Shown in pieces: positions 1 to 49,628 of a DNA stretch of 64,000 nucleotides. The notes beneath the pieces were generated by a model. That model saw nothing but the letters and a program-made list of their open reading frames with translations. It had not been told where the DNA came from and made no database searches. The stretch is taken from positions 56,631-120,630 of the forward strand of contig JAGGXR010000052.1 of NCBI GenBank assembly GCA_021162935.1. The letters run 5' to 3'. Both the position numbers and the translations under genes were made by a program. Source of the stretch: Deltaproteobacteria bacterium. GTDB taxonomy: Bacteria; Myxococcota_A; Polyangia; HGW-17; SLPX01. Every line of letters starts with the position of its first letter. Positions within the stretch are counted from its first letter, which is position 1.

Positions 1-552
1 CAGCAAAACAGAAAACAGAACACGGCGGAACGGTGCGGTGACGAGGCCAGCCTCTTCGATGGCACGATCGATGCCCCGCAGGCCCAACAGGGTCAGCCCC
101 GTCACTGCGGGCGCGTAGACCAGGCCGAGAACCAAAACCATACCCAAAGGCGAAAACAAAACGTTGCCGTGCCAGGAACCTGCCGGCGTCCCAGGCGGCA
201 CGAGCAGATAGAACCAACCGAGAGCGGAGAAAAACGGCGGCAAAAAGAGAGGAAACAGGTGTGCAACGAGACAGACACCTCGACCCAACACGTCGGATGT
301 CGCCAGAAACAGGGCCAGGCTCACTCCGACCATGAGCGCCACGATGGTCACCGAAACGCCCAGAACCACCGTCTTGCCCAGCAGGCTCCAGACGCGCCCT
401 CCACCGATCAGAGACGACAGCATCGAGGTCCAAGCGGGCGTTCGAAGCAGACCCACGACCAGCGCCAGAAACGGCATGAGACACAACCCGACAACGACGC
501 TCACCATCAGCCCCATGACCAACGATCGTTCGGTCTTGCGCCAGCCCATCAT
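1..552 (-). CDS. ABC transporter permease (Fe3+-type, FbpB-like), N-terminal ~184 aa only; gene continues past the window edge
   Basis: The minus-strand frame is open from an ATG ATG GGC TGG start (reverse complement of 541-552) to position 1. Translation MMGWRKTERSLVMGLMVSVVVGLCLMPFLALVVGLL...VLVLGLVYAPAVTGLTL is multi-TM and typical of ABC permeases. It lies 72 bp downstream of the Fe3+ binding-protein gene on the same strand. The six-frame track omits it because no stop falls inside the window. Confidence 0.6.
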   Translation of the reverse strand, partial: MMGWRKTERSLVMGLMVSVVVGLCLMPFLALVVGLLRTPAWTSMLSSLIGGGRVWSLLGKTVVLGVSVTIVALMVGVSLALFLATSDVLGRGVCLVAHLFPLFLPPFFSALGWFYLLVPPGTPAGSWHGNVLFSPLGMVLVLGLVYAPAVTGLTLLGLRGIDRAIEEAGLVTAPFRRVLFSVLL

Positions 553-624
553 GGCACGCCTGCCCCTGATCGAATTTCCAGGAGACACCCGTTCGAACGC
601 ACATTTCTCGACGGCATCGGCACG

Positions 625-1764
625 CTACAGGCCCGACCATTTCCGCAGAAACGACTGCATGTGCTCCAACGCGTCGGCTGCCTTTTCGTAATCCACGTTC
701 GTGCGCTTCAACGATGCGGGCCAGGAAACTCCCCGTTTCGACTTCGGCACCTTCACATCGGGTCGCAAAGGCAGATAGGACCCCGTGTCAACGAGCCGAC
801 GCTCCACGTCTTTGGACACAAGACATTCGAGGAGTTTCCGTGCCAGTTTGGCGTGAGGCGCCCCCTTGATCAACACGACAGTCGATGGCATGACCACGGT
901 GCCCATGCCCTGCTGGTCTGGAAACACGACCGCCACGTTGGCACGATCACGGACCGCCTCGGCGGCGTCCTCGGTATCCGTCAGGCCGAAGGCCACCTGG
1001 CCTGCGACCACGAGCCGTTTGACTTCCCCGTTCGATCCAACGATTTTGACGCCGTTGTCCTTGATCCTGTCCATGAAGGTCCGGGTCTTGGCCTCGCCCC
1101 ATATGGAAGCGAGGGCAGCCACGTGCATGGTCGTCGTACCATACAACGGACTGGCCATGGCCACCTTGCCCTTCCATTTTGGATCGACCATGTCCAAAAT
1201 CGACGTGGGCATCTGATCCGCCGGCACCAGTGCTTTGTTGACCAACAGGATCCTGGCCCTGGCCGCAACGCCCGTCCAGGTGCCGTCGCCAGCGCGAAAC
1301 ACACCAGGCAGATCCGACGCCGCTTTGGGTCGATAAGCCACCACGAGCCCCCGCCGCACGAGCAACGCCGACCGCACCGGATCACCAGACCAGAATAGGT
1401 CCGCCTGGGGATGATTCCGCTCCGCGATGAGCCGATTGAGCACCCCGGTACTCTTGGTCTCTTCCGTGTCGTACAGGCCGCGAACCTCAATCCCTGTCTT
1501 CTTCGAGCAGTAGCGGAAAATCGGCTGGGCATCCACCTGATCGACCGAGGTGTAGACCACCACAACCTTGTGCTGGACACAGCCGCGGCACCCAACGTCC
1601 GTTACGGACAGCAAACTCAGCGCGACCATGAGGATTGACAACGAACCAAAGCGCCGCGAGATCCTGCCTCTCAAATCTCCCACGCATGACGTCCCGCCAC
1701 GTGGAAATCCTGTCCATCGTCGTGCCTGTCGATTCATGAAGCAATGCCTCCAATTCTGTTCCAT
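625..1764 (-). CDS. Fe3+ ABC transporter periplasmic substrate-binding protein (FbpA/AfuA family)
   Basis: 379-aa ORF with a signal-like segment (MVALSLLSV...) and a solute-binding family 1 fold typical of iron(III) binding proteins (…LVVAGQVAFGLTDTEDAAEA…, …GSNGEVKRLVVAG…). A permease gene follows. The true start may be an internal Met. Confidence 0.75.
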   Translation of the reverse strand: MEQNWRHCFMNRQARRWTGFPRGGTSCVGDLRGRISRRFGSLSILMVALSLLSVTDVGCRGCVQHKVVVVYTSVDQVDAQPIFRYCSKKTGIEVRGLYDTEETKSTGVLNRLIAERNHPQADLFWSGDPVRSALLVRRGLVVAYRPKAASDLPGVFRAGDGTWTGVAARARILLVNKALVPADQMPTSILDMVDPKWKGKVAMASPLYGTTTMHVAALASIWGEAKTRTFMDRIKDNGVKIVGSNGEVKRLVVAGQVAFGLTDTEDAAEAVRDRANVAVVFPDQQGMGTVVMPSTVVLIKGAPHAKLARKLLECLVSKDVERRLVDTGSYLPLRPDVKVPKSKRGVSWPASLKRTNVDYEKAADALEHMQSFLRKWSGL

Positions 1765-1904
1765 TCGGCCTGCAGCAGCTCGTGAGATACCGCCGAACTA
1801 CGGATGATAGAAGGGCCACAAACCGATATTGACCGTCTGGGCCCCGGAATACACCGACGTGTCGCCAGCGTCGATCGACGGAGACCCAGACTTGGGCCGA
1901 TTCT

Positions 1905-1990
1905 GATCGTCACCGTCAGTCCGCCGCCACCGGCGCTCGATCGTCACCGTCAGTCCGCCGCCACCGGCGCTCGATCGTCACCGTCAGTCC
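1905..1990. repeat. 34-bp tandem direct repeat, ~2.5 copies (unit gatcgtcaccgtcagtccgccgccaccggcgctc)
   Basis: Read directly: copies at 1905-1938 and 1939-1972, then a partial third copy 1973-1990 that diverges (…gtccgtgttc). It is intergenic, between the Fe-transporter operon and the antiporter gene. Confidence 0.9.
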
Positions 1991-2250
1991 GTGTTCAACA
2001 AGGCAATTTCAAGGTCGCCCTGCCGGAGGCCCGGTTTTTGTACCCCATCTCTTTTAGCAAGTTATCTATTTTGGTTCATTTTTTTTCGAAACTTCTAGGC
2101 AAGAGGCCGGCCGGCATGGAATATGGAAAACGAATCACCTCCATACGCGAATGCAGCGACACCCGCCGCTCTCGTCTGAGGCGGACGCACTGCGACGCCG
2201 GCAGGTCCTGACTGCCGCAGCCTGCTCGGCGGCCGCCGTGCGAATCATAC

Positions 2251-4167
2251 GTGGAGGGACAAGGCGCGCGAGGGTCCATGGGACTGCAGCACATCAAAAT
2301 GCAGATTCTCGAAATGGGGCTGCTCATCCTCGCGGCGTACTCAGGGGGTAAGCTCGCCCAAAAACTGAAGATTGGCGAGGTCGTGGGCCAAATCCTCGGT
2401 GGCGTGATCGTGGGCCCACACTTTCTCGAACTGATCCACAAGATCCTCGTGCATTACGACTGGCTCCAACGCTACGTGGTGTTCAGGCCAATCTATCACT
2501 TCTATGACACGCAGTTTCCCGAATACGCCCGAGTGCTGGAAGGCTATCATTTCTTCGTATTCCTGTTCCTGGGCATCATCGCCTTCTCCATCGGCGAAGA
2601 ACTCCACCGAGATCGTCTCAGACAGGTGGGAATCGCGGCCACGATGATCTGCGTCCTGCAGGCTCTCCTCACGTTTCTCCTCGGCTTTCTCGGATTTTGG
2701 CTCATCTTCAGGTTCTCGGTCATCAATGCGCTGCTCATGGGCGCCATCGGCATCGCCACAGCCCCAGCCCTCACGTTCGTCCTCATGAACAAATTGAAGG
2801 TCGAAGGACAGCTCAAAAGCATTTTGGCAAACATCGTGGTCCTCGATGACATCATCGAGGTCGTTTTCTTCTCGGTCATCCTCGGCATCGCCCTGGCGCT
2901 CCAGCGCGGAGGCAGCATCTCCTCCACGCATCTCGCCATCGAAGTCATCAAAGAACTCCTCTTCGCAGCGGGAATCGGCGCTCTCATCTTCTTGCTCCTC
3001 AAGGTCTTCATCCGAAAGAAAATGCCCACGGAAGATGAAGTCGCAGCCGAGCCCAATTTTCTCTCCATGGTCATGTCGGAACACCCGACTCCGTCGCTCG
3101 AAATCCTCGTCGTGATCACGGGCATCGTGGCCGTCGGCCTCGCCGTCGCCATCGAATTCAATCTCCCTTTCCTCATCACAGCCGTGGTCGCCGGCTTCCT
3201 GGTTTCGAATTTCCATTCCCATGCCCTGTTCGATTCCCTGAAAATCGAAAACGTGATGCCTCTGTTCAACCTGATGTTCTTTGCGATCATCGGTTCGAGC
3301 GTCCGGGTGGAAAGCCTATCGAGCGGCGTGCTCGTCTACGTCATTGGCTACTTGGTTTTCCGGACCGTTGGAAAGCTGGTGGGAAACTGGGCCGGATGTC
3401 GACTGACGGCCCAGGACCCGAAGATCACGGCCTGCCTGCCGAAACTCATGCTGCCTCAGGCCGGCATGGCGGCTGTGGAAACCATTCTCGTGGCAACGGT
3501 CCTGAAACAATCGGGCGGGATGAAGCTTTTCAATACCATCATTCCCGCCCTGGTCGTGTTCGAACTCGTGGGGGCCTGGTTGTCGGAAAAGACCCTCCTG
3601 AAATGGAAGAGCTGGACCGTTGGCGAACGCGAAGCGCTCGACGCGCCCCACGTTGCGGGAAGCGGATTCTCTCTCCACGAACTGATCGGACAACGGATCT
3701 GCAGATTGATGGCACAGACCAGGGATGATGCCATCTTTGAACTCGGAACATTTTGCGTCAGCCAACGAATCATCCCTGAGGTCGGTATTCTAACCAACCC
3801 GGTACGGGAACGGGAAAAGCTCGCATCCACGGCCATTGGTGACGGCATCGCCCTGCCCCACTTCCGAACGGGCCTGCTCAAGCGAACCGTCGTCGTATGC
3901 GGCCTATTGCAGCATCCCGTGGACTGGAATGCGCCGGACCACCAGCCGGTGGATCTGGTTTTTCTCCTCATCAGCCCGGAACAATACCCCGAAGAGCACC
4001 TGGAAGCGATCCGCGCCATCGGTCTGGCCTTGCGGAAGCCCGACTTCCGAGACGGCCTGACACAGGCCGTCGCAGACGGCACGACCGCAGCCTATCTCAA
4101 GAGTTTCACGGAAGCGAAAAAAGACGCCCCAACCGCCGACTTCACGGGGCAAACTGCTCAAACGTGA
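2251..4167 (+). CDS. Cation:proton antiporter (CPA / Na+-H+ exchanger family) fused to a C-terminal PTS EIIA type-2 (EIIA-Ntr/PtsN-like) domain
   Basis: The N-terminal ~400 aa are multi-TM with a Na_H_exchanger-like pattern (GEVVGQILGGVIVGP, …LANIVVLDDIIEVV…). The C-terminal ~150 aa carry the EIIA-2 signature around the phosphorylatable His (…STAIGDGIALPHFRTGLLKRTVVVCGLLQHPVDW…DLVFLLISPEQ…HLEAIRAIGLAL). Start is uncertain: GTG 2251, ATG 2278 or ATG 2299. Confidence 0.75.
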   Translation: MEGQGARGSMGLQHIKMQILEMGLLILAAYSGGKLAQKLKIGEVVGQILGGVIVGPHFLELIHKILVHYDWLQRYVVFRPIYHFYDTQFPEYARVLEGYHFFVFLFLGIIAFSIGEELHRDRLRQVGIAATMICVLQALLTFLLGFLGFWLIFRFSVINALLMGAIGIATAPALTFVLMNKLKVEGQLKSILANIVVLDDIIEVVFFSVILGIALALQRGGSISSTHLAIEVIKELLFAAGIGALIFLLLKVFIRKKMPTEDEVAAEPNFLSMVMSEHPTPSLEILVVITGIVAVGLAVAIEFNLPFLITAVVAGFLVSNFHSHALFDSLKIENVMPLFNLMFFAIIGSSVRVESLSSGVLVYVIGYLVFRTVGKLVGNWAGCRLTAQDPKITACLPKLMLPQAGMAAVETILVATVLKQSGGMKLFNTIIPALVVFELVGAWLSEKTLLKWKSWTVGEREALDAPHVAGSGFSLHELIGQRICRLMAQTRDDAIFELGTFCVSQRIIPEVGILTNPVREREKLASTAIGDGIALPHFRTGLLKRTVVVCGLLQHPVDWNAPDHQPVDLVFLLISPEQYPEEHLEAIRAIGLALRKPDFRDGLTQAVADGTTAAYLKSFTEAKKDAPTADFTGQTAQT

Positions 4168-4244
4168 GTAGAGGCTCGCCCGCACGAACACACCTTCAAC
4201 GATCGAGCATGGAGGCAGGGAACATGAGCGACGACGTGATCCGT

Positions 4245-5249
4245 TCAGTGCCTGACCGGCGAGCGGGGCCTCGATGCCCCTCTCGCACCGGAGCGTACGC
4301 CGGAACGCGCCGCTGACCGCGCAGCAGGCCTCGCTCCTCCTCGCGCCGTTGACCGCGCAGCAGGCATCGCTCCTCCTCGCGCCCCTGCCTGTGCCGCAGA
4401 CAGTGATCCACTCGGTGCCGTCTTCGCATCGACAGGTGACGCCATAAAATGGTCGAAGTTGGTCCTCGCATCCGACTTGGTCCACAGTCCGACTTTGCCC
4501 GGCGCCATGAAGGTCTTGTCGAACAGGTCGAGGAGCTTCTTTCCGTCCAGATAGCACTGGATGTGAGCACCGGTCATCACGGCGCGGACCTGATGCCACC
4601 CCTTGTGGGGTCGCTTCGTCCTGGCCGATCCCAACATCGTACGCACACCGCCCTTCACGTGGTAGACGCGAAAGTTGTCTTCGAGTGGATTGTAGCGCAC
4701 CACATAATAATTCTTGCCGTCCTTGGCTCGCCAGGCAACACCACCGCCCTGATCGATCCGCCCCTTGACCGTCTTGAGCTTCACGGACAGGTCCACGTCG
4801 CCCGTCACTGGGCTGGTCGAAAGCACCACGTTGTATCGGCTGTCCGGTCCAACCCCCTGCTGCGCCAACACCTTGGGCCCCGACGGAGCCGTCCGATCCG
4901 CCACCACGGCCCACTTCCCAGAGGTCACCAGGAACCCCTTGGGCAAAGCACCCAGGGCCGCCTTCTCGAAATCCCAGGTCACCGGAGCCGTCAACCCCGG
5001 CTCAGCCGCCGCTGTCCCGCCCGCCGTTGGCACCTTCTTTGGCATTCGCGGCAGATTCGGTTTCGGACTCGACATCCCGGCCGGCCGCGCCGACGTCTTC
5101 GCCTGCTTGCTCGCCCCGGACTTTTCGACCCTACTCTTGTGGCCACAGCCGGTCCCGGCAAACACCATGCCTGCCACGCTGAACAGAACCGCAACCTCCT
5201 TCATTGCACCGATCCCCACCTCTGTTGCCTGTCTGAATCGTCTCGTCAT
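4245..5249 (-). CDS. Secreted/lipoprotein with DUF1080-like (3-keto-disaccharide hydrolase / concanavalin-type jelly-roll) domain and an Ala/Arg-rich C-terminal tail
   Basis: Signal-like N-terminus MTRRFRQATEVGIGAMKEVAVLFSVAGMVFAGTGC (alternative start 5204). The central domain matches the DUF1080 pattern (…GDVDLSVKLKTVKG…GGGVAWRAKDGKNYYVVRYNP…GWHQVRAVMTGAHIQCYLDGKKLLDLFD…GKVGLWTKSDARTNFDHF). The C-terminal ~65 aa A/R/G-rich tail is encoded by a 36-bp tandem repeat. Confidence 0.5.
   Translation of the reverse strand: MTRRFRQATEVGIGAMKEVAVLFSVAGMVFAGTGCGHKSRVEKSGASKQAKTSARPAGMSSPKPNLPRMPKKVPTAGGTAAAEPGLTAPVTWDFEKAALGALPKGFLVTSGKWAVVADRTAPSGPKVLAQQGVGPDSRYNVVLSTSPVTGDVDLSVKLKTVKGRIDQGGGVAWRAKDGKNYYVVRYNPLEDNFRVYHVKGGVRTMLGSARTKRPHKGWHQVRAVMTGAHIQCYLDGKKLLDLFDKTFMAPGKVGLWTKSDARTNFDHFMASPVDAKTAPSGSLSAAQAGARGGAMPAARSTARGGARPAARSAARSGVRSGARGASRPRSPVRH
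4308..4390. repeat. 36-bp tandem repeat (~2.2 copies) inside the 3' end of the 4245-5249 gene
   Basis: cgccgctgaccgcgcagcaggcctcgctcctcctcg (4308-4343) is followed by cgccgttgaccgcgcagcaggcatcgctcctcctcg (4344-4379) and a partial third copy. On the minus strand it encodes the repeated …ARGGA(M/R)PAARS(T/A)… peptide. Confidence 0.85.
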
Positions 5250-5874
5250 GATCGTTTCTCCCTCGGCCGACTGGCCAGGCCCTCTCGTCCCTGCCGACGA
5301 GCCTTCGAAACAATGGACCACCCGATACCAACTGCGCCCCGCACGCATCGTCCCTATTTGTATGTCGGTTCGGCGGATGGTGGAAGCAGAATTTCTTCAG
5401 ACGAACGCCATGCTACTCCGTCCGGACCCGAGCAAGGACACACAACTTCTGTTTTCGAGGGATCCGAACATTCGTTCACCGACAACGGGTACCGATACTT
5501 CGCCGTGGTCACCAACATGGACGGCGACGGCACCCAGATTATCCGCTGGCATTGGGCCAAACACGGCAGCACCGAAAACGGCCACGAAGTCGCAAAAAAT
5601 CAACTTGGCGCCGCCGTGCTGCCACGAGCAGATTCTGTTTACCCGATTACCCGACAACCCGACGATTGAGGGCCAATACCGGTCTTGCGAACCATCTCTT
5701 GGTGATCTAGTCTTCGGCTCGTCTTCGACTCGGTCATTGGCATCGATCTCGGCCAAAAGACCGATAGGAAGACCTCGTCGGAAACGGACAGGCCAACGCG
5801 GCAAAAAAGCCACTGCAACGCCACGCGGACATGCAACAGCACACTCAGAAAACGCAGAAAATGGTGAACCTACA

Positions 5875-7770
5875 GTGACACGAAAAAAGAAGCGACAGTC
5901 GTCAGGCGTGAAGCACTGGCTCACGGAAACCAAGGCAGGAAACGTAACCTGGCGAATCGGAGCGGCGCTGCTGTCGGGCTCCATGTGGTTTTTGGCCTGC
6001 GCCGACTTCGACATCTGGCCTCTGGCCTGGATTGCCATGGTTCCCACCCTTTGGGCGATTCGGGGCCAGAAGGCGAAACCCGCCTTCTGGTATGCCTACC
6101 TGGCGGGCATCGTGGCCAACGCCGGAGGCTTCTATTGGATCGTCGGTTTGCTGGAGCGATTCGGCAACATGCCGACCATTGCCGCCCTGCCCATCTTCCT
6201 TCTGATGGCGGCCTACCAAGGAATCGAGTTCGGTCTCTTCGGCTGGTGGATTTCTGTGCTGGAGCGCCGCACCCATTCGGGAGCAACCTGGTTCGCCCCG
6301 GTGCTCATGGTGGCCATCGAGCTGGTGACGCCACTCATTTTCCCATGGTACCTGGCGATCACGCAGGCCTGGGTGGTCCCGGTGATCCAGGTGGCGGACC
6401 TGGCGGGCCCGTTGGGCGTGACCTTCTTGTTGCTCGTGGCCAACGGGGCGGTCTACGACCTGCTGGATGCGGCAGCGGCACACAAAAAAATCCCGTGGCG
6501 CAGAGCGTCCATTGCGGCCGGAGTGCTCGTCGCAGCCCTTGTCTATGGTCAGATTCGTCTCCACCAGGTGCGCTCGACCATGAAGCAGGCCGAACACATC
6601 AAGATCGGAGTGGTCCAAGGCAACTTCGGAATCAATCTGAAGGGACAAAAAGGCTACCTTGCAAAACAACTCCAGGTGCACCAAGCCGTGAGCCATTTTC
6701 TCAAGGAACAGGGAGCCAAGTTAATCGTCTGGCCCGAATCGTCCTACCCCTATCCCATCGATCGAAACATCACCTCGGCGTCGGAGCTTCCTCCGGCCAT
6801 CCAGTTTGCACCTGATCTGGGCATTCCGATGATCATCGGTGCCATCACTGTGAAATGGAGCAAACAGAACCGCCCAAACAAGGTGTTCAACTCAGCCTTG
6901 ATGGTCGATGCCCAGGGACGCGTCACAGGCGTCTACGACAAGATGTACCTGCTTATTTTCGGCGAGTACATCCCGTTCCACGATGAACTGAGCTTCATGA
7001 AAAAGTTCTTCGAACATCACCGCATGTCCCATTTCGACCGGGGAAAGAAAGTGACCACCTTCCCCCTCGAATACAAGGACAACAGCTACCGAATCGGGCC
7101 GTTGATCTGCTACGAGGACATCATCACGTCATTCGGCAGGGCCCTGGCGGACCACAAGCCAAACCTTTTGGTGAACATCACGAACGACGCCTGGTTCGGC
7201 AACACGTCCGAGCCGTATGAGCACCTCGCCCTGGCTGTCTATCGAAGCGTGGAGCACCGCCTCGCCCTGGTCCGCGCCGTCAACACTGGCGTGTCCACCA
7301 TCGTGCTTCCCACTGGAAAACTCGGCCAGGAAACGCCGACGACCGGATCCAAAACTCCTCCCGGCAACGCTTTGGACCCGGCCATCGCCATGGAGACAGC
7401 GGGGTTCAAGCGACTATCCAAGGGTCTCTACCAAGCCAGGTCCTGGCCCCACCCGCATGCGCTCCTGGTTACGGCCCCCCTCATGCCAGCCCACGAAACG
7501 GTCTACGCCAAGGTGGGCGACATCTTCGGATACGCCAACCTGCTGCTGACCATTTACCTGCTCGTGTTCTTCAAACGCAAGACCTGGCGTAAACTCTTCA
7601 AGCGACAGTATGTACGATCGACAAGCGGCACTGAAACGCAGGACGAGAAAAGCAGCAAACAGGGTGGAACGAAGGCGAAAGCAGCTCTGAAAACGCCACA
7701 GAAAGGGAAAAGAAAAAAACAAACCAAAGCCCCGAAGTCATCGAAGAAGACGGGGAGGCAATCTTCCTGA
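5875..7770 (+). CDS. lnt: Apolipoprotein N-acyltransferase
   Basis: N-terminal multi-TM region followed by a CN-hydrolase domain (…KIGVVQGNFG…LIVWPESSYP…GPLICYEDII…NITNDAWFG…), with topology and length matching Lnt. The track ORF (4765-7770) carries a spurious ~370-aa upstream extension that overlaps the minus-strand gene. Start is placed at GTG 5875; alternatives are GTG 5908 and ATG 5983. There is a Lys-rich C-terminal tail. Confidence 0.8.
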   Translation: MTRKKKRQSSGVKHWLTETKAGNVTWRIGAALLSGSMWFLACADFDIWPLAWIAMVPTLWAIRGQKAKPAFWYAYLAGIVANAGGFYWIVGLLERFGNMPTIAALPIFLLMAAYQGIEFGLFGWWISVLERRTHSGATWFAPVLMVAIELVTPLIFPWYLAITQAWVVPVIQVADLAGPLGVTFLLLVANGAVYDLLDAAAAHKKIPWRRASIAAGVLVAALVYGQIRLHQVRSTMKQAEHIKIGVVQGNFGINLKGQKGYLAKQLQVHQAVSHFLKEQGAKLIVWPESSYPYPIDRNITSASELPPAIQFAPDLGIPMIIGAITVKWSKQNRPNKVFNSALMVDAQGRVTGVYDKMYLLIFGEYIPFHDELSFMKKFFEHHRMSHFDRGKKVTTFPLEYKDNSYRIGPLICYEDIITSFGRALADHKPNLLVNITNDAWFGNTSEPYEHLALAVYRSVEHRLALVRAVNTGVSTIVLPTGKLGQETPTTGSKTPPGNALDPAIAMETAGFKRLSKGLYQARSWPHPHALLVTAPLMPAHETVYAKVGDIFGYANLLLTIYLLVFFKRKTWRKLFKRQYVRSTSGTETQDEKSSKQGGTKAKAALKTPQKGKRKKQTKAPKSSKKTGRQSS

Positions 7771-7884: not shown

Positions 7885-8655
7885 ATGGACATTCGAGACA
7901 AAGTCGTGGTCGTGACCGGCGGAGCCCAAGGCATCGGGTTCGCCATCGCAGAACGGTTCGCCAAGGCCGGCGCCAAGCTCGTCCTGGGAGACATCAAACA
8001 GGACGTCCTCGACGAGGCAAAGCAGAAACTGTCGGCCACCGGAGCCAAGGTGCATGCCGTGGTCTGCAACGTGTCCAAGGAAGAAGACGCCGAGCGCCTC
8101 ATGCAGGCCGCGGTGGACGAGTTCGGACGCCTGGACGTGGCCGTGCTCAACGCAGGCATCCTGCGCGACGGTCTCCTCCTCAAACTGGACAAGGAGACAG
8201 GCAAGGTCAAGCGCAAGATGAGTCTGGAACAGTGGCAGATGGTCATCGACGTGAACCTGACCGGCGTGTTCCTCACCGGCAGGGAAGCAGCCGTCCGCAT
8301 GGCTGAGTTGGGCAACGGAGGCGCCATCGTCATGATGTCGAGCATCGCCGCCGAGGGCAACTTCGGCCAGACGAACTACAGCGCCACCAAGGCGGGGGTT
8401 CGGGCCATGGCGGTCACCTGGTCTCGGGAACTGGCTCGATACGGCGTGCGCGTCGCCGCCGTCGCGCCAGGCTTCATCGGCACCCCGATGGTCAAGAAAG
8501 ACATGAAGGCAGAAGCCCTGGAGAAACTACTCAAGATGGTGCCGGCCGGACGTCTGGGAGAGCCGGACGAAGTGGCCCACACCTGCCAGTTCATCGTCGA
8601 AAACGACTTCATCACCGGCGTCACCCTCGGCGTGACGGGCGGCATGAAGCTGTAG
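7885..8655 (+). CDS. SDR-family oxidoreductase (3-oxoacyl-ACP reductase FabG-like)
   Basis: Rossmann motif [16 protein letters not shown], catalytic N…S…YSATK (…[22 protein letters not shown]…). AGGAGG Shine-Dalgarno 5 nt upstream of the ATG. Confidence 0.9.
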
Positions 8656-8751
8656 CCACCGGGCGAAAACGTCATCCACCTGTAGCCCCCCCGGGCAAAA
8701 ACGTCTTTCTGATTTTCCTCGATGAAGGGCGCGATTCGGCTCTGAGACAGC

Positions 8752-9621
8752 CTACATGGGCTCCTGAAAGGTGCCGGTCCCAGACGACGTCTGACCTTCC
8801 ATTCCAGCCGATTCGGTGACCTGACGTTTGAGATTCCTCAGCCGAATGGCCAAAATCGTCACCAAGAACCCTAGAATCAACAGCCCAACCAGGGCGGCAA
8901 TCGCCACAACCTTGAGGGTTTGGCCAGAAGACTCCACGGGAGTCGCTTCGATCTTGCTGGCTGCAGTTCCCTGCTGGACGAGGACGCTCACGTTCTTGGA
9001 ATCCAGTCCGGCCACCGATCCTGCTACCAAGGACTGAATGGCTGCAAGCGACGCGGGCGTCTTACCCGCCTCCACCTTGAGATACACCGACGCCTTGGGT
9101 TGTGGCTTGGGCGCCTCGGGGTCGGCAAGGGGCGAACGCCGCGGCACCACGAGGTGCACGCGGGCATCGAGAACCCCGTCCATCCGCTTGAGGGTCTTGG
9201 ACAACTCACCCGACATGGCATAGACCATCTTGATGTGTTCTTCGGTCGAGGTGGGCACGAGGCCCGAACCACCGAACACCTCGCCGACGCCCTTGTCCTT
9301 GGGTCTGGGAAGATTCTCGATCAGGAGCACATCAAAGGCCTTGGACGCCTGCTTCACCGGCACGGTGATGGTGAACGCCGGTTTGCGGCCTTTTTCCTTG
9401 ACCTTGGTCGCCTCGATCCCCGCCTTGCGCAGCTTGAACACGATCAGATTCGCCTGTCGCTCGTCCAGGCCATGTTGGATCTCCGTGCCGCCGCAACCGG
9501 CAAACACACCGATGCCGGCAACCATGACCCAAAACGCCAGCCCAATGGGCAGCCAACGATGGAACTTTACGGTCCCAGCAGCGAACAGGCCACGATCGGC
9601 CCCGGACTCGGCAGCAATCAT
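8752..9621 (-). CDS. sctJ: Type III secretion inner-membrane ring lipoprotein, SctJ (YscJ/EscJ/PrgK family)
   Basis: Lipoprotein signal with lipobox (…GIGVFAGC). The mature N-terminus GGTEIQHGLDERQANLIVFKLRKAGIEA… and the second domain …DVLLIENLPRPK…EEHIKMVYAMSGELSKTLKRMDGVLDARVHLVVP align by eye with EscJ/PrgK. A C-terminal TM helix is present (VVAIAALVGLLILGFLVTILAI). Length ~290 aa, so SctJ rather than FliF. The track ORF (500 aa, 8752-10254) carries a spurious upstream extension. Confidence 0.75.
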   Translation of the reverse strand: MIAAESGADRGLFAAGTVKFHRWLPIGLAFWVMVAGIGVFAGCGGTEIQHGLDERQANLIVFKLRKAGIEATKVKEKGRKPAFTITVPVKQASKAFDVLLIENLPRPKDKGVGEVFGGSGLVPTSTEEHIKMVYAMSGELSKTLKRMDGVLDARVHLVVPRRSPLADPEAPKPQPKASVYLKVEAGKTPASLAAIQSLVAGSVAGLDSKNVSVLVQQGTAASKIEATPVESSGQTLKVVAIAALVGLLILGFLVTILAIRLRNLKRQVTESAGMEGQTSSGTGTFQEPM

Positions 9622-9821
9622 CACGACCCTTCTCCTGTCTTGCGCCCTCTTGTCTTGCGCCCTCTCCTGCCACAACGCACCCAAGGCCGATTTCTTAGCG
9701 AAAGACCGCACCCCTGGCAAGGACAATAGATGAATCCAACAGATATACCGGTCGTCCGGCTGGCTACCCGCCAACCGGACGGCCGACTGCCGACACGGGT
9801 CTCCCGGCCGTCGTTCGGTCG

Positions 9822-10247
9822 CTACATCCTGGTCTGGAGCAACTGGCGCACGGCCTGATTCGCCCGGTCGATGCTCTTCGAAAACAGGTCCATCTGCTGG
9901 GTGTACCGATACACGCTTACCTGGAGAGAAATCACCTGGTTGATGTCCAACGATCCCCGCATGGCCCGCCTGATATAGTGGTCCAGCTTGCGTTCGTCCT
10001 TCATCAAGCCTTCGACCTGCCTGCGAAGCAGGCCTGGTCCCTCCGGCTTGTCTGGCTTCGTTGCTCTCTGGGCGGCCTCTGGCCCGGTCGGGCCTTGCTG
10101 GGACACGACGCGACCGAACTCGGACTGGGCGCCGCCCTGCTCCGGCCTGATGGGGCCAACGAACCCAGGGCCATCGCCCATGGGCCCTCCTATCCTTTTC
10201 TTGGCTGCCACGTTTCCTGCGCCGCCTTGCACAGCACCAATTTTCAT
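9822..10247 (-). CDS. T3SS inner-rod/needle family protein (SctI-like; SctF not excluded)
   Basis: 141 aa with a Gly/Pro-rich N-terminus and a C-terminal segment …INQVISLQVSVYRYTQQMDLFSKSIDRANQAVRQLLQTRM that resembles the conserved C-terminal helix of SctI/SctF proteins. It sits immediately upstream of sctJ, the canonical sctI-sctJ order. GGAGGTG Shine-Dalgarno 6 nt before the ATG. Confidence 0.4.
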   Translation of the reverse strand: MKIGAVQGGAGNVAAKKRIGGPMGDGPGFVGPIRPEQGGAQSEFGRVVSQQGPTGPEAAQRATKPDKPEGPGLLRRQVEGLMKDERKLDHYIRRAMRGSLDINQVISLQVSVYRYTQQMDLFSKSIDRANQAVRQLLQTRM

Positions 10248-10502
10248 GAAACACCTCCGCGTCCTTGAAGAACGACCCCAGGCAACAAACCCGCTCCAGG
10301 CCGTTCTCTTTTCAGTTCACGCCCCCGATTGTCGACACGACAACCAAGGTTGTTGCGAAAAATCTGGTGGGAGAGTGAACGCTTCGGAAAAAAACGCGTT
10401 TTCTGGAAAAAACGATGCGAGGCGTGGAAATTCGCTCAGGGCGGGAAGGCCTTTCCACATCACAAAGATTGGAACGGATCCCGCGGCTGGCCGAAGGCCA
10501 CG

Positions 10503-11189
10503 TCACGAGGTGTTGACGACCTCCTGAAGCATCTTGATGGCACGGCCGTGGAGCCTACTCGCCCAGGACCGACTCAGCCCCATCTCCTTCCCCGCCTCGG
10601 CCAACGACTTATCCTTGAAATAGGACAACTCGATGATGCTGCGCTCCGACTCGGGCAGCGACTCGACCGCACGACGGACCACGTCGAACAATTCCACGTC
10701 TTCGACCTGGTCATAAACGGATCCAACGGACGCATCGGCGCTCTGTTCCACCGTCTCGGCCGCAAAGGCCAAGACCTCCATGGTCGCCAGGTTCGCCACC
10801 CGGTCTGCAAAGTTGGACAATGCATCTTCAAGGGCTCCGCCTGGTTGTCCGCCCTGGCCCTCTGATTCCAGGTATGAATCCACCCGTTCCTCACGCTGGA
10901 CCTTGTGCACCCTGGTCCGCGCCAGCACGCCCATGGATCGCAATCCGTCAAAAATCGCCCCGCGAATCCGATAGTACGCAAACGTGGAAAATGCGATGCC
11001 GCGCCGTGGATCATAGCGTTGAGCGGCAACCACGAGTCCTTGGTTGGCCAGGGCGACGGCCTCGTCGGTCAGGTCCTGATTCAGCCGAAGCATCCTGGCC
11101 GTCTTGATCGCAATCGACTTGGCCAGGCCCATGTGGCCCTCTATCAGGCTGTTTGCTCCTGCCGGAAGTCCTGAATCGACCATCGCCAT
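10503..11189 (-). CDS. Sigma-70 family RNA polymerase sigma factor, FliA/WhiG (sigma-28) type
   Basis: Region 2 (…VVAAQRYDPRRGIAFSTFAYYRIRGAIFDGLRS…) and region 4.2 HTH (…LPESERSIIELSYFKDKSLAEAGKEMGLSRSWASRLHGRAIKMLQ) are present. Length ~228 aa from Met at 11189 (MAMVDSG…). The track ORF begins 33 codons further upstream. Confidence 0.7.
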   Translation of the reverse strand: MAMVDSGLPAGANSLIEGHMGLAKSIAIKTARMLRLNQDLTDEAVALANQGLVVAAQRYDPRRGIAFSTFAYYRIRGAIFDGLRSMGVLARTRVHKVQREERVDSYLESEGQGGQPGGALEDALSNFADRVANLATMEVLAFAAETVEQSADASVGSVYDQVEDVELFDVVRRAVESLPESERSIIELSYFKDKSLAEAGKEMGLSRSWASRLHGRAIKMLQEVVNTS

Positions 11190-11696
11190 CCCCGAAGGTC
11201 CCAAGCCAATGGCTGCACTCTGGCAGCCGGTGGTCACGCACCACAGAGAACTACAATTGCTGTTGTGACCGAAGGGTACCGTTTCCAACTGTCCTGGTCA
11301 AGTTGAGGTCCACCTCGAACTTTCGCCCGGGAATAAGCGGCTCGAATGCCAGCACATTGCCCTCAACAGGAACCCTGACGGCATGCTGATCCGCCGCTCG
11401 TGCCAAAATCTCTGTTTGCTCTGCCCTCCGCACAGAACCAACCCTGCCCATTCATGCATCGGCCAGGGCATCGAAAATCCGGTCGGATTCCCGGGCAACG
11501 GTAGATAGCGGACCGCCACGATCCGATAGGCAGCCAGAACGAGGTCGTTGCGATTCGCCTTGCGCAAGGCAGGGCCGATGACTACATTTGGCATCTCCAA
11601 ACGGAACCGCCTCACAACATGACTGGGCACGGAATAGGTCGTCCAGGCGACACAAACTCGCAGAGGCGATGAAAATTCTCACGGGATGGAGACGAG

Positions 11697-14258
11697 ATGA
11701 TGAAGACGAGACACTTCTATGACGTGGTACCGGTGCTCCCGGATCGCATTTGGAAACTTCTCGATCTGGCCAAGAACATATACTGGTCCTGGCATCCAGA
11801 CGCGTTCCGGCTCTTCGAGCGCGTGGACCGGGCTCTATTCGAGGCCACGGGCCATAACCCTGTCAAGCTCCTGGCGACGGTGTCCCAGGCCAGGGTCGAA
11901 ACACTCGCCCAGGACGCCGGATTTTGCCACCACATGGACGAGGTGGTCGCACGATTCGAGCGGTACATGGCAGGTCCGGGATGGTATGACCGGCGAGAAG
12001 ACGGCGAGGGCGCCAAGCTCCTGGTGGCCTACTTCTCGGCGGAATTCGGTCTGGCGCAGTGTCTTCCCGTCTATTCGGGCGGCCTCGGCGTGTTGTCCGG
12101 CGATCATCTCAAGGCGGCATCGGATTTGAACCTTCCCCTGGTTGGCCTTGGATTGCTCTATCGAAAAGGCTACTTCCAACAGTATGTGAACCAGGACGGC
12201 TGGCAGCAGGAACGGTACCAAAGCGTTGATATCCACAACGCGCCGGCCACGCTGATCCTGGACGGTGGGCAGCCGCTGCAGGTGGAGGTCGCGTATCCGG
12301 GAAGGACGGTCTTCGCTCAGGTGTGGCGCGTGGACGTGGGTCGGGTGAAGCTGTACCTGATGGACACGCACGTGCCGGAGAACAACGAAGAGGATCAGGA
12401 CATCGGAGACTATCTCTATGGCGGAGGCAGCGAGATGCGCCTCAAGCAGGAACTCCTCCTCGGCGTGGGCGGCATGCGGGTCATCGAGGCCCTGGCCCTC
12501 CACCCCACGGTGTTCCACATGAACGAGGGGCATTCGGCCTTCCTGGCTCTGGAACGTATCCGTCAGACCATGACGCATCAAAATCTGGACTTCCCTGCAG
12601 CTCGGGCTGCCTGCGCCAGAGGAAACGTGTTCACGACGCACACGCCGGTCCCGGCGGGCTTCGACCTCTTCCCAGCCAACCTCCTCGAACGATATCTCGG
12701 CCCCCTGACGGAACAGATGGCCATTCCGTTCGATCGCATCGTTGCCATGGGACGAGGTGAGCCGGAAGACGCCGACGAACCCTTCAACATGGCCCTGTTC
12801 GCCGCCAGAAATGCAAACTTCGTCAACGGAGTCAGCAAGCTACACGGAGAGGTCACAAAGGAACTGTTCCATCATCTCACCCCGGATACGCCGGTCCACG
12901 AAATTCCCGTCACCTCGGTGACCAACGGCGTCCACCACCGGACCTGGTGCTCTCGGGACATGACCGACCTGTTGACGCGGTACCTGGGCGAGGGATGGTT
13001 CGACGATCCCACGAACAAGGAGACGTGGCAGCATGTGGCGGCCATCCCAGACGCGGAGCTGTGGCGGGTCCACGAGCGAGGCCGAGCTAAACTGGTCACC
13101 GTGGCCCGATCCATGCTGCGCAACCAGCTTTCGGAACGGGGTGCGACCCAACGGGACCTGGCCGTTGCCGACGAAATCCTGGACCCCGAGGTCCTGACCA
13201 TCGGCTTTGCGAGACGCTTCGCCACCTACAAACGAGCGACGCTCCTGTTCAGGGACGAAAACCGACTCAGGCGACTTCTGTCGCACCCGCGTCGCCCCAT
13301 CCAAATCGTCTTCGCCGGCAAGGCTCACCCGCGGGACGAAGCGGGCAAGCGACTCATCCAAAAAATCGTGCGATTCTCCCAGGACCCCGATGTCCGCCGC
13401 CGGATCGTGTTCCTGGAGAACTACCACATCGGTCTCGCCCGGACCCTGGTCGCGGGAGTGGACGTCTGGCTGAACACGCCCAGGCGTCCCATGGAGGCAA
13501 GCGGAACGAGCGGAATGAAGGTGGTCTACAACGGCGGGCTGAACTTCAGCGTGCTCGACGGCTGGTGGTGCGAGGGATACGGCCCGGAAACAGGATGGGC
13601 CATTGGGGCTGGCGAGGACTACGACGACAACGAATACCAGGACCAGGTGGAGTCCGAGGCCCTCTATCACACCCTGGAGAACGACATCGTTCCCGCCTTC
13701 TACGACCGTGACGAAAGCGATCTTCCCCGGGGATGGGTCTCGAAGATGAAGGCATCCATGGCGCAACTCGGCCCGTTCTTCAACACCCACAGAATGGTGC
13801 GCGACTACCACGACGAGTGCTACGCACCAGCAGCCGAAGATTCCCTACGGCTCGCCCAGGACTCGTTCTTCGAGGCCAGGCAGGAAGCTCTCTGGCGAGA
13901 ACGAATCCGGTCCTCCTGGTCCGGAGTCGAAATCCTGTCGGTGGACGTCCCGACGAACCGACAGAGCCTCCCGGTCGGGTCCTCGCTGCACGTGTCGGCC
14001 CGCGTCCGTCTGTCGGACCTTGCCACTGATGACGTATCGGTGGAGGCCTACGTCGGCCCGGTGGACGAGCACCAGCGGATCGAAAAGGGAGAGGCATTCA
14101 GCCTCGATCCAGTGGAGCACTTCGACGACGGAACCGTCCGGTACGAAGGAGACGTTCCCTGCAACCATTCGGGCAGCCACGGAATGCGAATTCGCATCCG
14201 CCCGCATCGCAGCGGCGTCCGGACCCTCTTCGCCCCGGTCCATTGGGAAAAACTGTAA
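11697..14258 (+). CDS. glgP: Alpha-glucan (glycogen/maltodextrin) phosphorylase, GlgP family with DUF3417 N-terminus
   Basis: 853 aa. Carries the PLP-lysine motif …EASGTSGMK… and conserved blocks …VAYFSAEFGL…LPVYSGGLGVLSGDHLKAASDL…, …FARRFATYKR…, …IVFAGKAHP…. Confidence 0.9.
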   Translation: MMKTRHFYDVVPVLPDRIWKLLDLAKNIYWSWHPDAFRLFERVDRALFEATGHNPVKLLATVSQARVETLAQDAGFCHHMDEVVARFERYMAGPGWYDRREDGEGAKLLVAYFSAEFGLAQCLPVYSGGLGVLSGDHLKAASDLNLPLVGLGLLYRKGYFQQYVNQDGWQQERYQSVDIHNAPATLILDGGQPLQVEVAYPGRTVFAQVWRVDVGRVKLYLMDTHVPENNEEDQDIGDYLYGGGSEMRLKQELLLGVGGMRVIEALALHPTVFHMNEGHSAFLALERIRQTMTHQNLDFPAARAACARGNVFTTHTPVPAGFDLFPANLLERYLGPLTEQMAIPFDRIVAMGRGEPEDADEPFNMALFAARNANFVNGVSKLHGEVTKELFHHLTPDTPVHEIPVTSVTNGVHHRTWCSRDMTDLLTRYLGEGWFDDPTNKETWQHVAAIPDAELWRVHERGRAKLVTVARSMLRNQLSERGATQRDLAVADEILDPEVLTIGFARRFATYKRATLLFRDENRLRRLLSHPRRPIQIVFAGKAHPRDEAGKRLIQKIVRFSQDPDVRRRIVFLENYHIGLARTLVAGVDVWLNTPRRPMEASGTSGMKVVYNGGLNFSVLDGWWCEGYGPETGWAIGAGEDYDDNEYQDQVESEALYHTLENDIVPAFYDRDESDLPRGWVSKMKASMAQLGPFFNTHRMVRDYHDECYAPAAEDSLRLAQDSFFEARQEALWRERIRSSWSGVEILSVDVPTNRQSLPVGSSLHVSARVRLSDLATDDVSVEAYVGPVDEHQRIEKGEAFSLDPVEHFDDGTVRYEGDVPCNHSGSHGMRIRIRPHRSGVRTLFAPVHWEKL

Positions 14259-27158: not shown

Positions 27159-27812
27159 ATGGAAATCCTCTCCGGCAAGAAACGCGTGCAACTCGACGAG
27201 CCCGGCTTCGCAGAACGGCTCGCACGACACGACGGACTCTGGATCGACCTGGGCTGTGGCGACGCCAAGTTCACCTTCCGCACCGCCATCCAGCATCCGG
27301 ACATCCTGGTCCTGGGACTCGATGCCGCCCGAGAGCCTATGGTCCCCCAAGCCGTTCGTGCCAGACGTTCCCCAAAAAAAGGCGGCGCCCCGAACCTCAT
27401 CCTCGCCGCCGCCGCCGTCGAAGACCTGCCGGACATGCTCCGCCATCGCGCCGAAACCGTCTCCATCAACTTCCCGTGGGGCAGTCTGCTCCGCGCCATC
27501 GTCATGGCCGAGCAACCGATCCTGGCCTCCATCTGCCAGCTCCTCCGCCCTGCCGGCTCCCTCGACATCCTGCTCAACGACAGCCTTTACGCCCAACCCC
27601 ACGTATATGAAAAGATGAACCTGGTCCGGATCGACCAGGAGCACCTGGAAACCATCACCGCCCCAGCCCTGACCCAATCCGATCTCGACGTGCAGGCCAT
27701 CGAGACGATTCCGAACCACGACATCCCCGTCCACACCTCCTGGGGCCGACGTCTGGCCGACTCCCACCCCGACGGGAAGACATGGCATATCAGCGCCCTG
27801 CGCCAGCCCTGA
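27159..27812 (+). CDS. 16S rRNA (adenine1408-N1)-methyltransferase family protein (NpmA/KamB-like aminoglycoside-resistance methyltransferase homolog)
   Basis: Strong by-eye match to NpmA: K-x-V-x-L…(F)DRVHIDLGTGDG versus …GLWIDLGCGDAK; KKPSKGGLSNVVFVIAAAESLP versus RRSPKKGGAPNLILAAAAVEDLP; SISILFPWGTLL versus TVSINFPWGSLL. It has a class I SAM-binding fold and is ~217 aa, as NpmA/KamB. Confidence 0.65.
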   Translation: MEILSGKKRVQLDEPGFAERLARHDGLWIDLGCGDAKFTFRTAIQHPDILVLGLDAAREPMVPQAVRARRSPKKGGAPNLILAAAAVEDLPDMLRHRAETVSINFPWGSLLRAIVMAEQPILASICQLLRPAGSLDILLNDSLYAQPHVYEKMNLVRIDQEHLETITAPALTQSDLDVQAIETIPNHDIPVHTSWGRRLADSHPDGKTWHISALRQP

Positions 27813-30440: not shown

Positions 30441-30494
30441 TCGTTGGTATGCAGAAATGAGGCATGTCGATACGGGAGAAGCGAGCTGGGCACC

Positions 30495-32045
30495 ATGGCG
30501 AACGGATCGATCCATTCACGAGGAACAAGGAACATATCCTGGCTTGTGGGCAGCCCTATCCGCGGCGCCGCGGCGATCACTTCCAGGCCATCGGTGCCTT
30601 TCGTGACCGCTGCATCCCTCATCGTGGTCGGGGCGTCCCTCATCGTGGTCGGGGCCGGACCAGCCCGGGCACAACCGGCGATCAGGGACGATCATTCCCC
30701 GGCAGTCCCCCAGGCCACGTCACCCAACCCATCACAGAAGGCGTGCGATCGGCATGCGCGAATTCGTCTCCGGATTCCCGAGCAGACGGCATCTTCATTT
30801 TGGACCGGTCGATACGGCTGGCTGGACAACCCCGCGCTCCTGACGAGTCACCTCATGGTGACCGGAGGATTCCTGGCCGGCAGGCGCACGGACAGCTACA
30901 AGGGCCTCAGTCTGGATGGTGCGTCCCAGGATGAAAATTCGTCGTCACCGCCGAGTCTGGGAGGCTGGGTTGCGGTGTCGGGCCCAACCGGTCGCCCGGG
31001 CCTGACGGGGCTTCGGGCGGGAATCGGATTCTGGGAAATCGGCGACCAGGACGTCGCCTACCAGGGATCCAGTGTGATCTCCCGGTTCCTGCTGTCCCGC
31101 CTGAAGCGCCGAGAACATGTCGTCACCGCGGCCCTGGCCTGGGCCGGACGGTCCTTTTCGGTGGGCATCGCGTTCCAGGCGACGCTGGCAGAGCAACAGA
31201 TGGCCTGGAAGTTGTGGGCCGGCACCGACCCGCAATGGCCCAAGGCGGACGAGACGTTCGACCTGCCCATGCACCTGGACCTTACGGACCGGTTCATTCC
31301 AGGGGCTTCGGCTGGTCTGGCTTGGCAGCCCACGAGTCGGCTGCAGTTCCAACTCGGCTTCCGCTGGAGGGGGACCGGGCATCTCCAAGGATCGGTGTCG
31401 TCGGGGCTGATTGCCGGTCGGCCGGACATCCCGATTCAGTCGGGTCGGGCGAGCACGCTGGATCCCATGCAGTTTCGTGGCCATCTGGCGGCTCTGCTCC
31501 GTTTGGGACGGGTCCGGCTGGACCTCGCCTTTGCCGTGGACAATCTGGCGCGTCGGCAGACAGTCGCCAAACTGGGATTCAAATCCGCGTCGGGCACCTT
31601 GGACTCGAATCCTTCAGGATCGGATCCTTCGGGATCGATGAGCATGGACATGCCGAATCAGGCGGTGATTCCAGATGCCGCCATGGGAGGAGGCGTTCGC
31701 ATCGGAGGGGATACCACGGCCATCGTCTCCATCCTGCCAAACCGGCTCGCTATCGATGTGGGGATTGGCGTACGGGGTCGCGTGACCGGTCAAGACGACC
31801 CGCTGGACCGAGCCCACCCCATCGTCAGAGCCGGCCTGGCCATCCTGGTGCACAAAGGTCCGGTGAGCGCGGAACTCGGATACAGCGTTGCCTACGGCCG
31901 AATCGATGCAGATGCCGCAAGCTGGACGTCGATCAACCCCACCGGCGGCCCGGACCTGGCCGGGGGACTCGCCGGTCGAACCGCCGTGACCCACGCCGCA
32001 GTCATGACCATCAACTGGGTCTTCCCTGAACATCTGGTGAGGTGA
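30495..32045 (+). CDS. Hypothetical secreted protein, probable outer-membrane beta-barrel
   Basis: Coding-like codon usage with GC-rich third positions. Signal-like N-terminus with an internal 21-bp duplication (ASLIVVG twice). Many alternating amphipathic stretches (…AALAWAGRSFSVGIAFQATLA…, …AGLAWQPTSRLQFQLGFRWRG…, …LAIDVGIGVRGRVTG…, …HAAVMTINWVF). No family recognised. Confidence 0.4.
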   Translation: MANGSIHSRGTRNISWLVGSPIRGAAAITSRPSVPFVTAASLIVVGASLIVVGAGPARAQPAIRDDHSPAVPQATSPNPSQKACDRHARIRLRIPEQTASSFWTGRYGWLDNPALLTSHLMVTGGFLAGRRTDSYKGLSLDGASQDENSSSPPSLGGWVAVSGPTGRPGLTGLRAGIGFWEIGDQDVAYQGSSVISRFLLSRLKRREHVVTAALAWAGRSFSVGIAFQATLAEQQMAWKLWAGTDPQWPKADETFDLPMHLDLTDRFIPGASAGLAWQPTSRLQFQLGFRWRGTGHLQGSVSSGLIAGRPDIPIQSGRASTLDPMQFRGHLAALLRLGRVRLDLAFAVDNLARRQTVAKLGFKSASGTLDSNPSGSDPSGSMSMDMPNQAVIPDAAMGGGVRIGGDTTAIVSILPNRLAIDVGIGVRGRVTGQDDPLDRAHPIVRAGLAILVHKGPVSAELGYSVAYGRIDADAASWTSINPTGGPDLAGGLAGRTAVTHAAVMTINWVFPEHLVR

Positions 32046-38126: not shown

Positions 38127-38341
38127 GTCCCACGCTCTCCTGACATTCTGGGCATATCATAAATACATCGATCCGGGAACGGATTCCATGAAATGTCGCA
38201 AAGGCGACCTGCTCCGCCTGTTTTCGAAGACTTGGTTCTGAGCCCGCTTGGGGTATACTGCAGGACAAATCATCATTGCCGTCAGACCTCCTGGGACAGC
38301 ATCGGAGCACGAGACTGACGGACAACCAGCAGGAACCGACC

Positions 38342-45069: not shown

Positions 45070-45234
45070 GACCGAAGTGTGAGTCAAGCGGACAGAAGCT
45101 GTCAAGCTTCGAAGGAACCGATGAAGGCGCGCAATCACGGCCTGGACAAAACACCAGTCTGCGACTACAACCCTCAAGGCCTCGCGCCAATGTGATAGGA
45201 AGCAGCAAGGCGAGCAATCGATTTTGTGAGGACC

Positions 45235-49617: not shown

Positions 49618-49628
49618 GGAGGGTACGG

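Follow-up and report, generated by a model that had tools for sequence, protein, structure and literature searches.

A 64,000-nucleotide stretch (hereafter the window) of a metagenome-assembled genome (MAG) deposited as Deltaproteobacteria bacterium and placed by GTDB in Myxococcota_A (Polyangia; HGW-17; SLPX01), namely positions 56,631 to 120,630 of contig JAGGXR010000052.1 (assembly GCA_021162935.1), carries a small block of genes related to type III secretion systems (T3SSs). Three co-directional minus-strand open reading frames (ORFs) fill window positions 8752-11189 and encode a sigma factor, an SctI-like protein and the ring lipoprotein SctJ. These identities had been proposed in an earlier note made from the sequence letters, and profile searches bear them out; the ORFs also occupy exactly the span that the note gave. 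Gaps of 255 nt (sigma factor to sctI) and 200 nt (sctI to sctJ) separate the genes. The block consists of the following features:

8752-9621, minus strand: ring lipoprotein SctJ of the inner membrane, 289 aa, same sequence as database protein P0001
9822-10247, minus strand: SctI-family (inner rod / FliE-position) protein, 141 aa, MCD6497858.1 (J7M25_06065)
10329-10357, minus strand: bipartite promoter-like motif CGCAAC-N16-TCGACAA, ~82 nt upstream of the sctI-like ATG, preceded by a T-tract
10503-11189, minus strand: FliA/WhiG-like (sigma-28-like, group 3) sigma factor, 228 aa

SctJ matches PF01514 (YscJ_FliF) at 99.7 bits, well above the gathering cut-off of 24.4, and among the more specific models TIGR02544 for SctJ (151.1 bits, cut-off 161.95) outscores TIGR00206 for FliF (60 bits, cut-off 129.75), both scores staying below their cut-offs. 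The N-terminal hydropathy maximum is 2.29, and the signal peptide ends in the lipobox GVFAGC(43)GG, whose Cys43 (9493-9495) is invariant in an alignment of 13 SctJ homologues; a C-terminal transmembrane helix (residues 236-261; 8839-8916) is followed by a 28-aa cytoplasmic tail. An AlphaFold2 model built with 13 homologues (predicted local distance difference test score, pLDDT, 78) contains two ring-building motifs (RBMs) of alpha-beta-beta-alpha-beta topology and a helix at 232-274, and Foldseek aligns it with PrgK, MxiJ and EscJ at TM-target (template modelling) scores of 0.59-0.66, and also with RBM1-2 of FliF. There is no FliF-type RBM3/collar, and the size falls within the ~250-300 aa range of SctJ proteins. 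Compared with the PDB, the family profile matches Aquifex FliF RBM1-2 (4e-26), PrgK (8e-23), MxiJ (8e-21) and EscJ (1e-18). With this combination of profile, lipobox, model and a match to FliF RBM1-2 slightly better than that to PrgK, the protein is a basal, SctJ-type ring lipoprotein whose lineage lies near the root of the flagellar proteins. A sporulation-type ring (SpoIIIAG/AH) was rejected, as no such matches were obtained and SctJ/FliF profiles and folds dominate. The sctJ leader also contains a tandem 15-nt repeat (GAGGGCGCAAGACAA / GAGGGCGCAAGACAG; 9630-9662, minus strand) just upstream of the ribosome-binding site.

The 141-aa protein is labelled in GenBank as a hypothetical protein of the 'Deltaproteobacteria bacterium' MAG. 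A single-sequence homologue search with it returned the self-match only, and its score against PF17001 (20.5 bits, E=7e-4) is under the gathering cut-off of 32.4. An alignment of 16 family members was gathered from neighbouring loci; 13 of these members match PF17001 (best E=1.3e-6), and the family profile matches Shigella MxiI (8axk_M) marginally (E=0.083) over the C-terminal 56 residues. The C-terminal helix had been described beforehand as 'SctI/SctF-like'; the PF17001 matches uphold the SctI half of that description, and the SctF half is to be dropped. The conserved part of the protein is its helical C-terminal ~65 residues (…LQVSVYRYTQQ.DL.SK.VDRA.QAVKQ.LQTR.), whereas the N-terminal ~70, rich in Gly and Pro, vary between members and have a predicted disordered structure. 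A low-confidence single-sequence model agrees, with helices at 71-97, 102-118 and 124-140 (pLDDT 70-86) and residues 1-70 unstructured; a fold search of this model returned generic helical bundles only. No signal peptide is present (N-terminal hydropathy maximum 0.63). The gene has a GGAGG ribosome-binding site 7 nt before its ATG and lies directly upstream of sctJ, a placement kept in all loci of the family, and its product aligns with that of the gene preceding sctJ in the short T3SS loci of Myxococcaceae, which Abby and Rocha named the inner rod protein (PMC3459982). A FlgM-like anti-sigma identity was considered and set aside, given the match of the family to SctI and its presence in Myxococcaceae loci that have no such sigma factor. 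A weak hairpin (9747-9760) follows the sctI-like stop codon.

The ORF of the sigma factor extends at its longest to 11288, and some gene callers start it at 11132 (209 aa); we place the start at 11189, in agreement with the coordinate in the earlier note, because the 209-aa version would leave out the N-terminal helix 'LIEGHMGLAKS', which all homologues conserve. Pfam recognizes Sigma70_r2 and Sigma70_r4, with no Sigma70_r3 match at E<=1, and the alignment to FliA/WhiG covers the full length. The best solved relatives are Streptomyces WhiG (6pfv, 1e-16) and E. coli FliA (6pmi, 4.5e-14). Neighbourhoods extending +-10 kb around each matched gene were compared, with the neighbours of 80 genome loci clustered and Pfam annotation added (loci carry L numbers), and orthologues of the sigma factor occupy the same position in L005, L007, L010, L015, L016, L019, L039, L045, L047, L057, L102, L110, L164 and L167. 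An ORF at 11298-11630, upstream of the sigma gene, was treated as non-coding, as it has no family match, is unannotated and is unlike the genes upstream of the sigma factor in relatives. An Rfam scan of 8500-11800 detected no RNA element.

The block is not peculiar to this genome. At least eight lineages (the window, L005, L007, L010, L015, L016, L102 and L167) keep all three genes of the sigma/SctI-like/SctJ unit intact, and across them the proteins are 35-59% identical; the earlier note had named conservation in related genomes as a check. The metagenome contigs and MAGs L005, L007-9, L010 (GCA_054026275.1), L015 (CAZIJS01), L016 (JAABSF01), L102 and L167, whose units contain SctJ homologues 47-59% identical to that of the window, together form clade A1, and most A1 loci keep lnt, or a short-chain dehydrogenase/reductase (SDR) gene plus lnt, convergent downstream.

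The spacer between the sigma gene and sctI holds a conserved element. Aligned A1 spacers have in common an A/T tract, CGCAAC, 15-16 nt and (C/T)CGA(A/T/C)AA, and the -10 half, conserved as (G/T)(C/T)CGA(T/A/C)AA, resembles the sigma-28 consensus GCCGATAA. A pattern derived from L005, L007 and L010 (CGCAAC-N14-16-YCGANAA) has a single match in the 64 kb (expected 0.12), recurs at the equivalent spot in L016, which was absent from the derivation set, and has only two further matches across all other loci. L015 carries GAAAC-N15-GCCGATAA, a perfect sigma-28 -10, and relaxed forms immediately precede sctI in L060, L029 and L031, as one does sctJ in L011. A scan of the window for the canonical sigma-28 promoter (TAAA-N13-17-GCCGATAA, <=2 mismatches) found nothing, and sigma-70 and terminator consensus scans stayed at chance level. 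The search for a sigma-28-type promoter upstream of 10247, suggested in the earlier note, thus gave not the canonical consensus but a promoter-like bipartite motif with a sigma-28-like -10. It supports, without proving, the idea that the adjacent sigma factor drives the module.

The block is isolated from other T3SS genes in the part of the genome that was read. Gene-calling by codon-position GC yielded 43 candidate ORFs in the window, and a Pfam scan of 40 ORFs beyond the three (candidate ORF 61323-62027 was not scanned) detected no T3SS family. Whole-window tblastn with lineage-specific SctD-like, SctL, SctN, SctO, SctP, SctQ, SctR, SctS, SctT, SctU and SctV, FliG-like and accessory queries added nothing further, and a leftward extension of 9.4 kb, taken from another assembly of the same organism, contains no T3SS gene. 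The label 'orphan' is unproven for the genome as a whole, of which ~73 kb (the window plus 9.4 kb) was read. The absence of other sct genes from the 64 kb, and with it the view that this is not a canonical arrangement, had been put forward on first reading and both hold. The sctJ gene is not accompanied by sctRSTUV, none of which is found in the window or within 10 kb of the block in its clade. The only Yop-YscD_cpl match, at 49545-51437 (plus strand), could pass for SctD but is the FHA domain of an FHA-GAF-sigma-54 activator, a transcription factor. A family scan also confirmed the flanking genes as first described, namely glgP beyond the sigma gene and, beyond sctJ, lnt and SDR:

5908-7770: lnt (apolipoprotein N-acyltransferase)
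7885-8655: SDR

In the window, L005, L007, L010 and L016, lnt and the lipoprotein gene sctJ point towards each other despite ~50% identity between the lineages, a pairing that may reflect old synteny or a functional link. A JGI contig from the same sample (Ga0187538_107000) is 100% identical to window positions 1-7702 and then continues with an enolase fragment instead of SDR-sctJ. The break, at 7702 near the 3' end of the lnt gene, marks either a rearrangement between strains beside the block or an assembly chimera. The source samples are JGI 3300017593 and SAMN18353076.

The affinities of the block lie with the needle-less 'Myxo' T3SS of Myxococcota (T3SS*), which has short and long loci (PMC3459982, PMC10433427). 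In a neighbour-joining tree all Myxococcota SctJ form one clade apart from canonical injectisome SctJ, and the clade of the window's SctJ adjoins the SctJ of the Myxococcaceae short loci; the tree, tblastn and alignment together place both SctJ and SctI in the Myxococcota needle-less clade, and Myxococcaceae are the closest cultured relatives of the block. Judged by sequence, the structural genes belong to this known family. The short locus of Pyxidicoccus starts with the orthologues of the SctI-like and SctJ genes, after which come sctQ, sctR, sctS, sctT, sctU and sctV; sctRSTUV accompany the orthologous pair in L014, as do sctRSTU in L163, where sctV was not seen. The window shares with these systems an adjacent, orthologous sctI and sctJ in the same order and the lack of a secretin or needle gene nearby. 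It differs in that its pair stands among housekeeping genes, away from sctQRSTUV, and in the FliA/WhiG-like sigma factor upstream, which the Myxococcaceae loci do not have. A further difference is that the window's relatives carry a FliG homologue, whereas Abby and Rocha stated that Myxo systems lack FliG (PMC3459982).

Those relatives supply the genes that are missing from the window. In other uncultured Myxococcota, the order sigma-I-J-FliG-like-SctL-SctN is found in L019, L029, L031, L039 and L110, and in L045 and L057 sigma-I-J is followed by an SctD-like FHA protein. Contig L164 holds sigma-I-J-L-N, where a single called ORF of 512 aa spans sctJ and the FliG-like gene, and L163 holds I-J-FliG-like-L-N-O-x-Q-x-R-S-T-U, with sctI beginning 188 nt from the contig end; joined via the identical SctN on both contigs, they give the reconstructed run TPR-x-sigma-I-J-FliG-like-L-N-O-x-Q-x-R-S-T-U. 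The FliG-like gene, which directly follows sctJ or heads a separate FliG-SctL-SctN-SctO-SctP module, is a FliG homologue by FliG_M in 6/6 members and by FliG_C in 5/6, and its PDB profile matches are exclusively to FliG (best 1.2e-11). Examples, all in related loci outside the window, are:

L019, 10801-11871: FliG homologue
L039, 10858-11877: FliG homologue
L163, 1858-2922: FliG homologue
L095, 8121-9146: FliG homologue

The complementary part of the system also stands alone. L095 has FliG-like-L-N-O-P alone among housekeeping genes, its first gene (341 aa) being 45% identical to the FliG-like protein of L039, and L165 has L-N-O among housekeeping genes with sctQ 9 kb away; because such complementary modules stand alone in other Myxococcota, dispersal is common in this group. 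T3SS organization in the group runs from contiguous to dispersed, and the window holds the most reduced form, cut directly after sctJ. Scattered T3SS loci are known in Chlamydiales (PMC3459982), where core genes likewise lie in small loci among housekeeping genes, a condition that would apply here and is seen in the relatives; the chlamydial system differs in being another T3SS family with needle and secretin, and in that its parts have all been demonstrated in one genome.

The comparison with the flagellum is equally instructive. The relatives' order of sctI, sctJ, FliG-like, FliH/SctL, FliI/SctN and FliJ/SctO, followed by FliM/N, FliP, FliQ, FliR and FlhB, corresponds to the flagellar fliE-fliF-fliG-fliH-fliI operon, and the reconstructed L164/L163 run keeps the flagellar order from fliE to flhB. 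The likeness extends to sigma-28 (FliA), through the solved relatives of the sigma factor (WhiG/FliA) and the -10 element. The ring protein, however, is a 289-aa lipoprotein with RBM1-2 only and a single C-terminal helix, unlike FliF with its ~550 aa; genes for rod, hook, Mot proteins or filament were not seen; and canonical FliA drives late genes, whereas the sigma factor here precedes basal-body genes. Dedicated sigma factors are also encoded inside T3SS clusters in plant pathogens (HrpL) and Bordetella (BtrS), both of the extracytoplasmic function (ECF, group 4) type. The likeness to these lies in a dedicated sigma factor beside T3SS structural genes, which it presumably controls, and the difference in its class, which is group 3 and FliA/WhiG-like here rather than ECF.

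Taken together, we consider the block most likely to be a satellite module of a dispersed Myxo-type T3SS, equipped with its own sigma factor, and assign this reading a probability of roughly 0.7. The block would be the sctI-sctJ module of a needle-less, flagellum-like T3SS of the Myxococcota type plus a sigma factor travelling with it, and this module would have become separated from the other T3SS genes in this lineage. The sigma factor would guide RNA polymerase to the promoter with the sigma-28-like -10, driving sctI and probably sctJ. From what is known of the family and from its fold, SctJ would leave the cytoplasm through Sec, receive its lipid at Cys43 and be held in the membrane by the C-terminal helix, and would oligomerize into a periplasmic ring around the SctRSTU/V gate. 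The SctI-like protein would be exported by that gate and cap it as the first rod layer, assembling on SctR/T; it would have to take this route because it has no signal peptide while SctJ is periplasmic. Genes for the gate, the ATPase complex and the C-ring are predicted to lie elsewhere in the genome. The satellite reading is favoured because the unit sits in the T3SS clusters of relatives, at whose head it stands, and complementary modules occur in isolation in related genomes, because the SctI-like protein has no other route to the periplasmic ring, and because sctV and sctR have been reported in Myxococcia and Polyangia genomes (PMC11509652). A distant satellite of a T3SS encoded elsewhere was one of the possibilities raised by the earlier note, and the comparison supports it. 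In M. xanthus, the T3SS* works in predation (PMC10433427), and the needle-less system acts in contact-dependent prey lysis (PMC10433427, PMC10849154).

Several observations weigh against this interpretation. Pfam and tblastn detected no other T3SS gene in ~73 kb of this genome, and no other T3SS gene lies within 10 kb in any A1 locus. No SctN or SctV could be tied to this MAG or to another A1 genome, the SctN accessions that were checked belonging elsewhere and none matching the samples or accession series of the window, and no assembly occurs twice among the matches listed in the SctJ scan. The sigma factor scores best among subfamily models with TIGR02479 (FliA_WhiG) at 88.3 bits, far under the cut-off of 189.6, and we therefore name it FliA/WhiG-like rather than FliA. 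The -35 half of the motif (CGCAAC/GAAAC) is not the canonical sigma-28 TAAA, and the -10 of the window is the weakest of the set, with a spacer one base longer.

The isolation of the block in every locus of its clade is also what would be expected of an autonomous module, in which gate and ATPase were lost and the sigma-controlled SctJ ring is re-used in another envelope structure or as a scaffold, sensor, signalling or checkpoint device, with the SctI-like protein acting otherwise than as a rod. Lone SctJ in fixed non-T3SS contexts is very common in Myxococcota, comprising more than 40 kinase-SctJ loci and sigma-SctJ pairs without sctI, and these many pairs show that the ring gene is often kept without T3SS neighbours; moreover, Abby and Rocha reported Myxo T3SS only in Cystobacterineae (PMC3459982). 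Against this, an SctI-like protein lacking a signal peptide would have no path to a periplasmic ring that lacks a type III gate, its polymerization-type C-terminal helices are the most conserved part of the protein, dispersed complementary modules do exist in related genomes, and sctV and sctR are reported across both Myxococcia and Polyangia (PMC11509652). We regard autonomy as unlikely, and it is similarly doubtful that the kinase-SctJ and sigma-SctJ pairs are further cases of re-use, as they would be if the module were autonomous. The comparison neither supports nor contradicts the earlier note's third reading, of the block as the core of a different envelope-spanning structure.

These lone sctJ loci deserve mention in their own right. 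A Ser/Thr kinase gene (~650 aa) lies directly upstream of a lone sctJ, often overlapping it, in more than 40 Sandaracinaceae/Polyangiales loci, whose surrounding 10 kb contain neither sctI nor the sigma factor nor any further T3SS gene:

L013, L018, L020-L028, L032-L034, L040, L042-L044, L048-L053, L106-L144 (many): kinase-sctJ loci

In the complete 9.07-Mb chromosome OZ245758.1 (L046), tblastn found a lone sctJ, for which the adjacent kinase was not checked. In L011/L012, L129, L130, L132, L135 and L139 the same sigma gene stands next to sctJ, the sctI-like gene that would separate the two being absent; L011 has pspA downstream and the motif CAAC-N16-CCGATTT in its 57-nt spacer.

Whether the sigma factor belongs to the module may be questioned as well. 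It could be an unrelated neighbour, with only sctI and sctJ linked and transcribed from housekeeping promoters: the Myxococcaceae short loci (L014, L017 and L041) hold sctI-sctJ without it, the 255- and 200-nt gaps permit independent transcription, and the non-canonical -35 half points the same way. Such a coincidence is improbable, however, given that the sigma factor immediately precedes sctI or sctJ in over 20 loci of several clades, some of which share only sctJ as the other constant, and that a sigma-28-like -10 lies between the sigma gene and sctI/sctJ in many of them. Finally, a decaying relic of a former T3SS cluster kept by chance, which the earlier note had also entertained and which would fit the lack of the relatives' downstream genes (FliG-like, sctL, sctN, sctQ-V) and the existence of degenerate loci such as E. 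coli ETT2 (PMC3459982), is contradicted and very unlikely because three intact, full-length genes, the invariant lipobox Cys, the ring-building motifs, the SctI C-terminus and the intergenic promoter motif persist in at least eight diverged lineages at ~50% identity, and the split arrangement with lnt downstream is old and stable.

Elsewhere in the window, an ORF at 27159-27812 (plus strand) adjoining EF-G gives a match to the NpmA 16S rRNA (adenine1408-N1) methyltransferases (PF24675, 190 bits against a cut-off of 60), a family of the pan-aminoglycoside-resistance type that here occurs in an environmental MAG. Four ORFs of 435-826 aa (30444-32045, 38276-40348, 43426-45906 and 59780-61087) have coding-like GC content at third codon positions and zero Pfam matches.

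Our literature search found no description of a detached sctI-sctJ module, of a FliA/WhiG-like sigma factor, with a sigma-28-like promoter, that is tightly and widely linked to it, or of a gene cluster of flagellar order in which a FliG homologue comes immediately after SctJ. The detached module, the sigma linkage and, in the relatives, FliG after SctJ therefore appear to be new, and the FliG-containing clusters of the relatives are more striking than the window block itself. If the satellite interpretation is correct, the myxobacterial needle-less T3SS would reach well past the cultured Cystobacterineae and would be broken into small modules in many uncultured Myxococcota, where cluster-based detectors would miss or mis-score it. 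The FliA/WhiG-like sigma factor would be the first candidate regulator of this system, with a recognizable promoter that could help to delimit its regulon and to locate cargo and modules that are still missing. The flagellar gene order and the FliG homologue beside an SctJ-type ring would, in turn, bear on the proposed transition from flagellum to injectisome.

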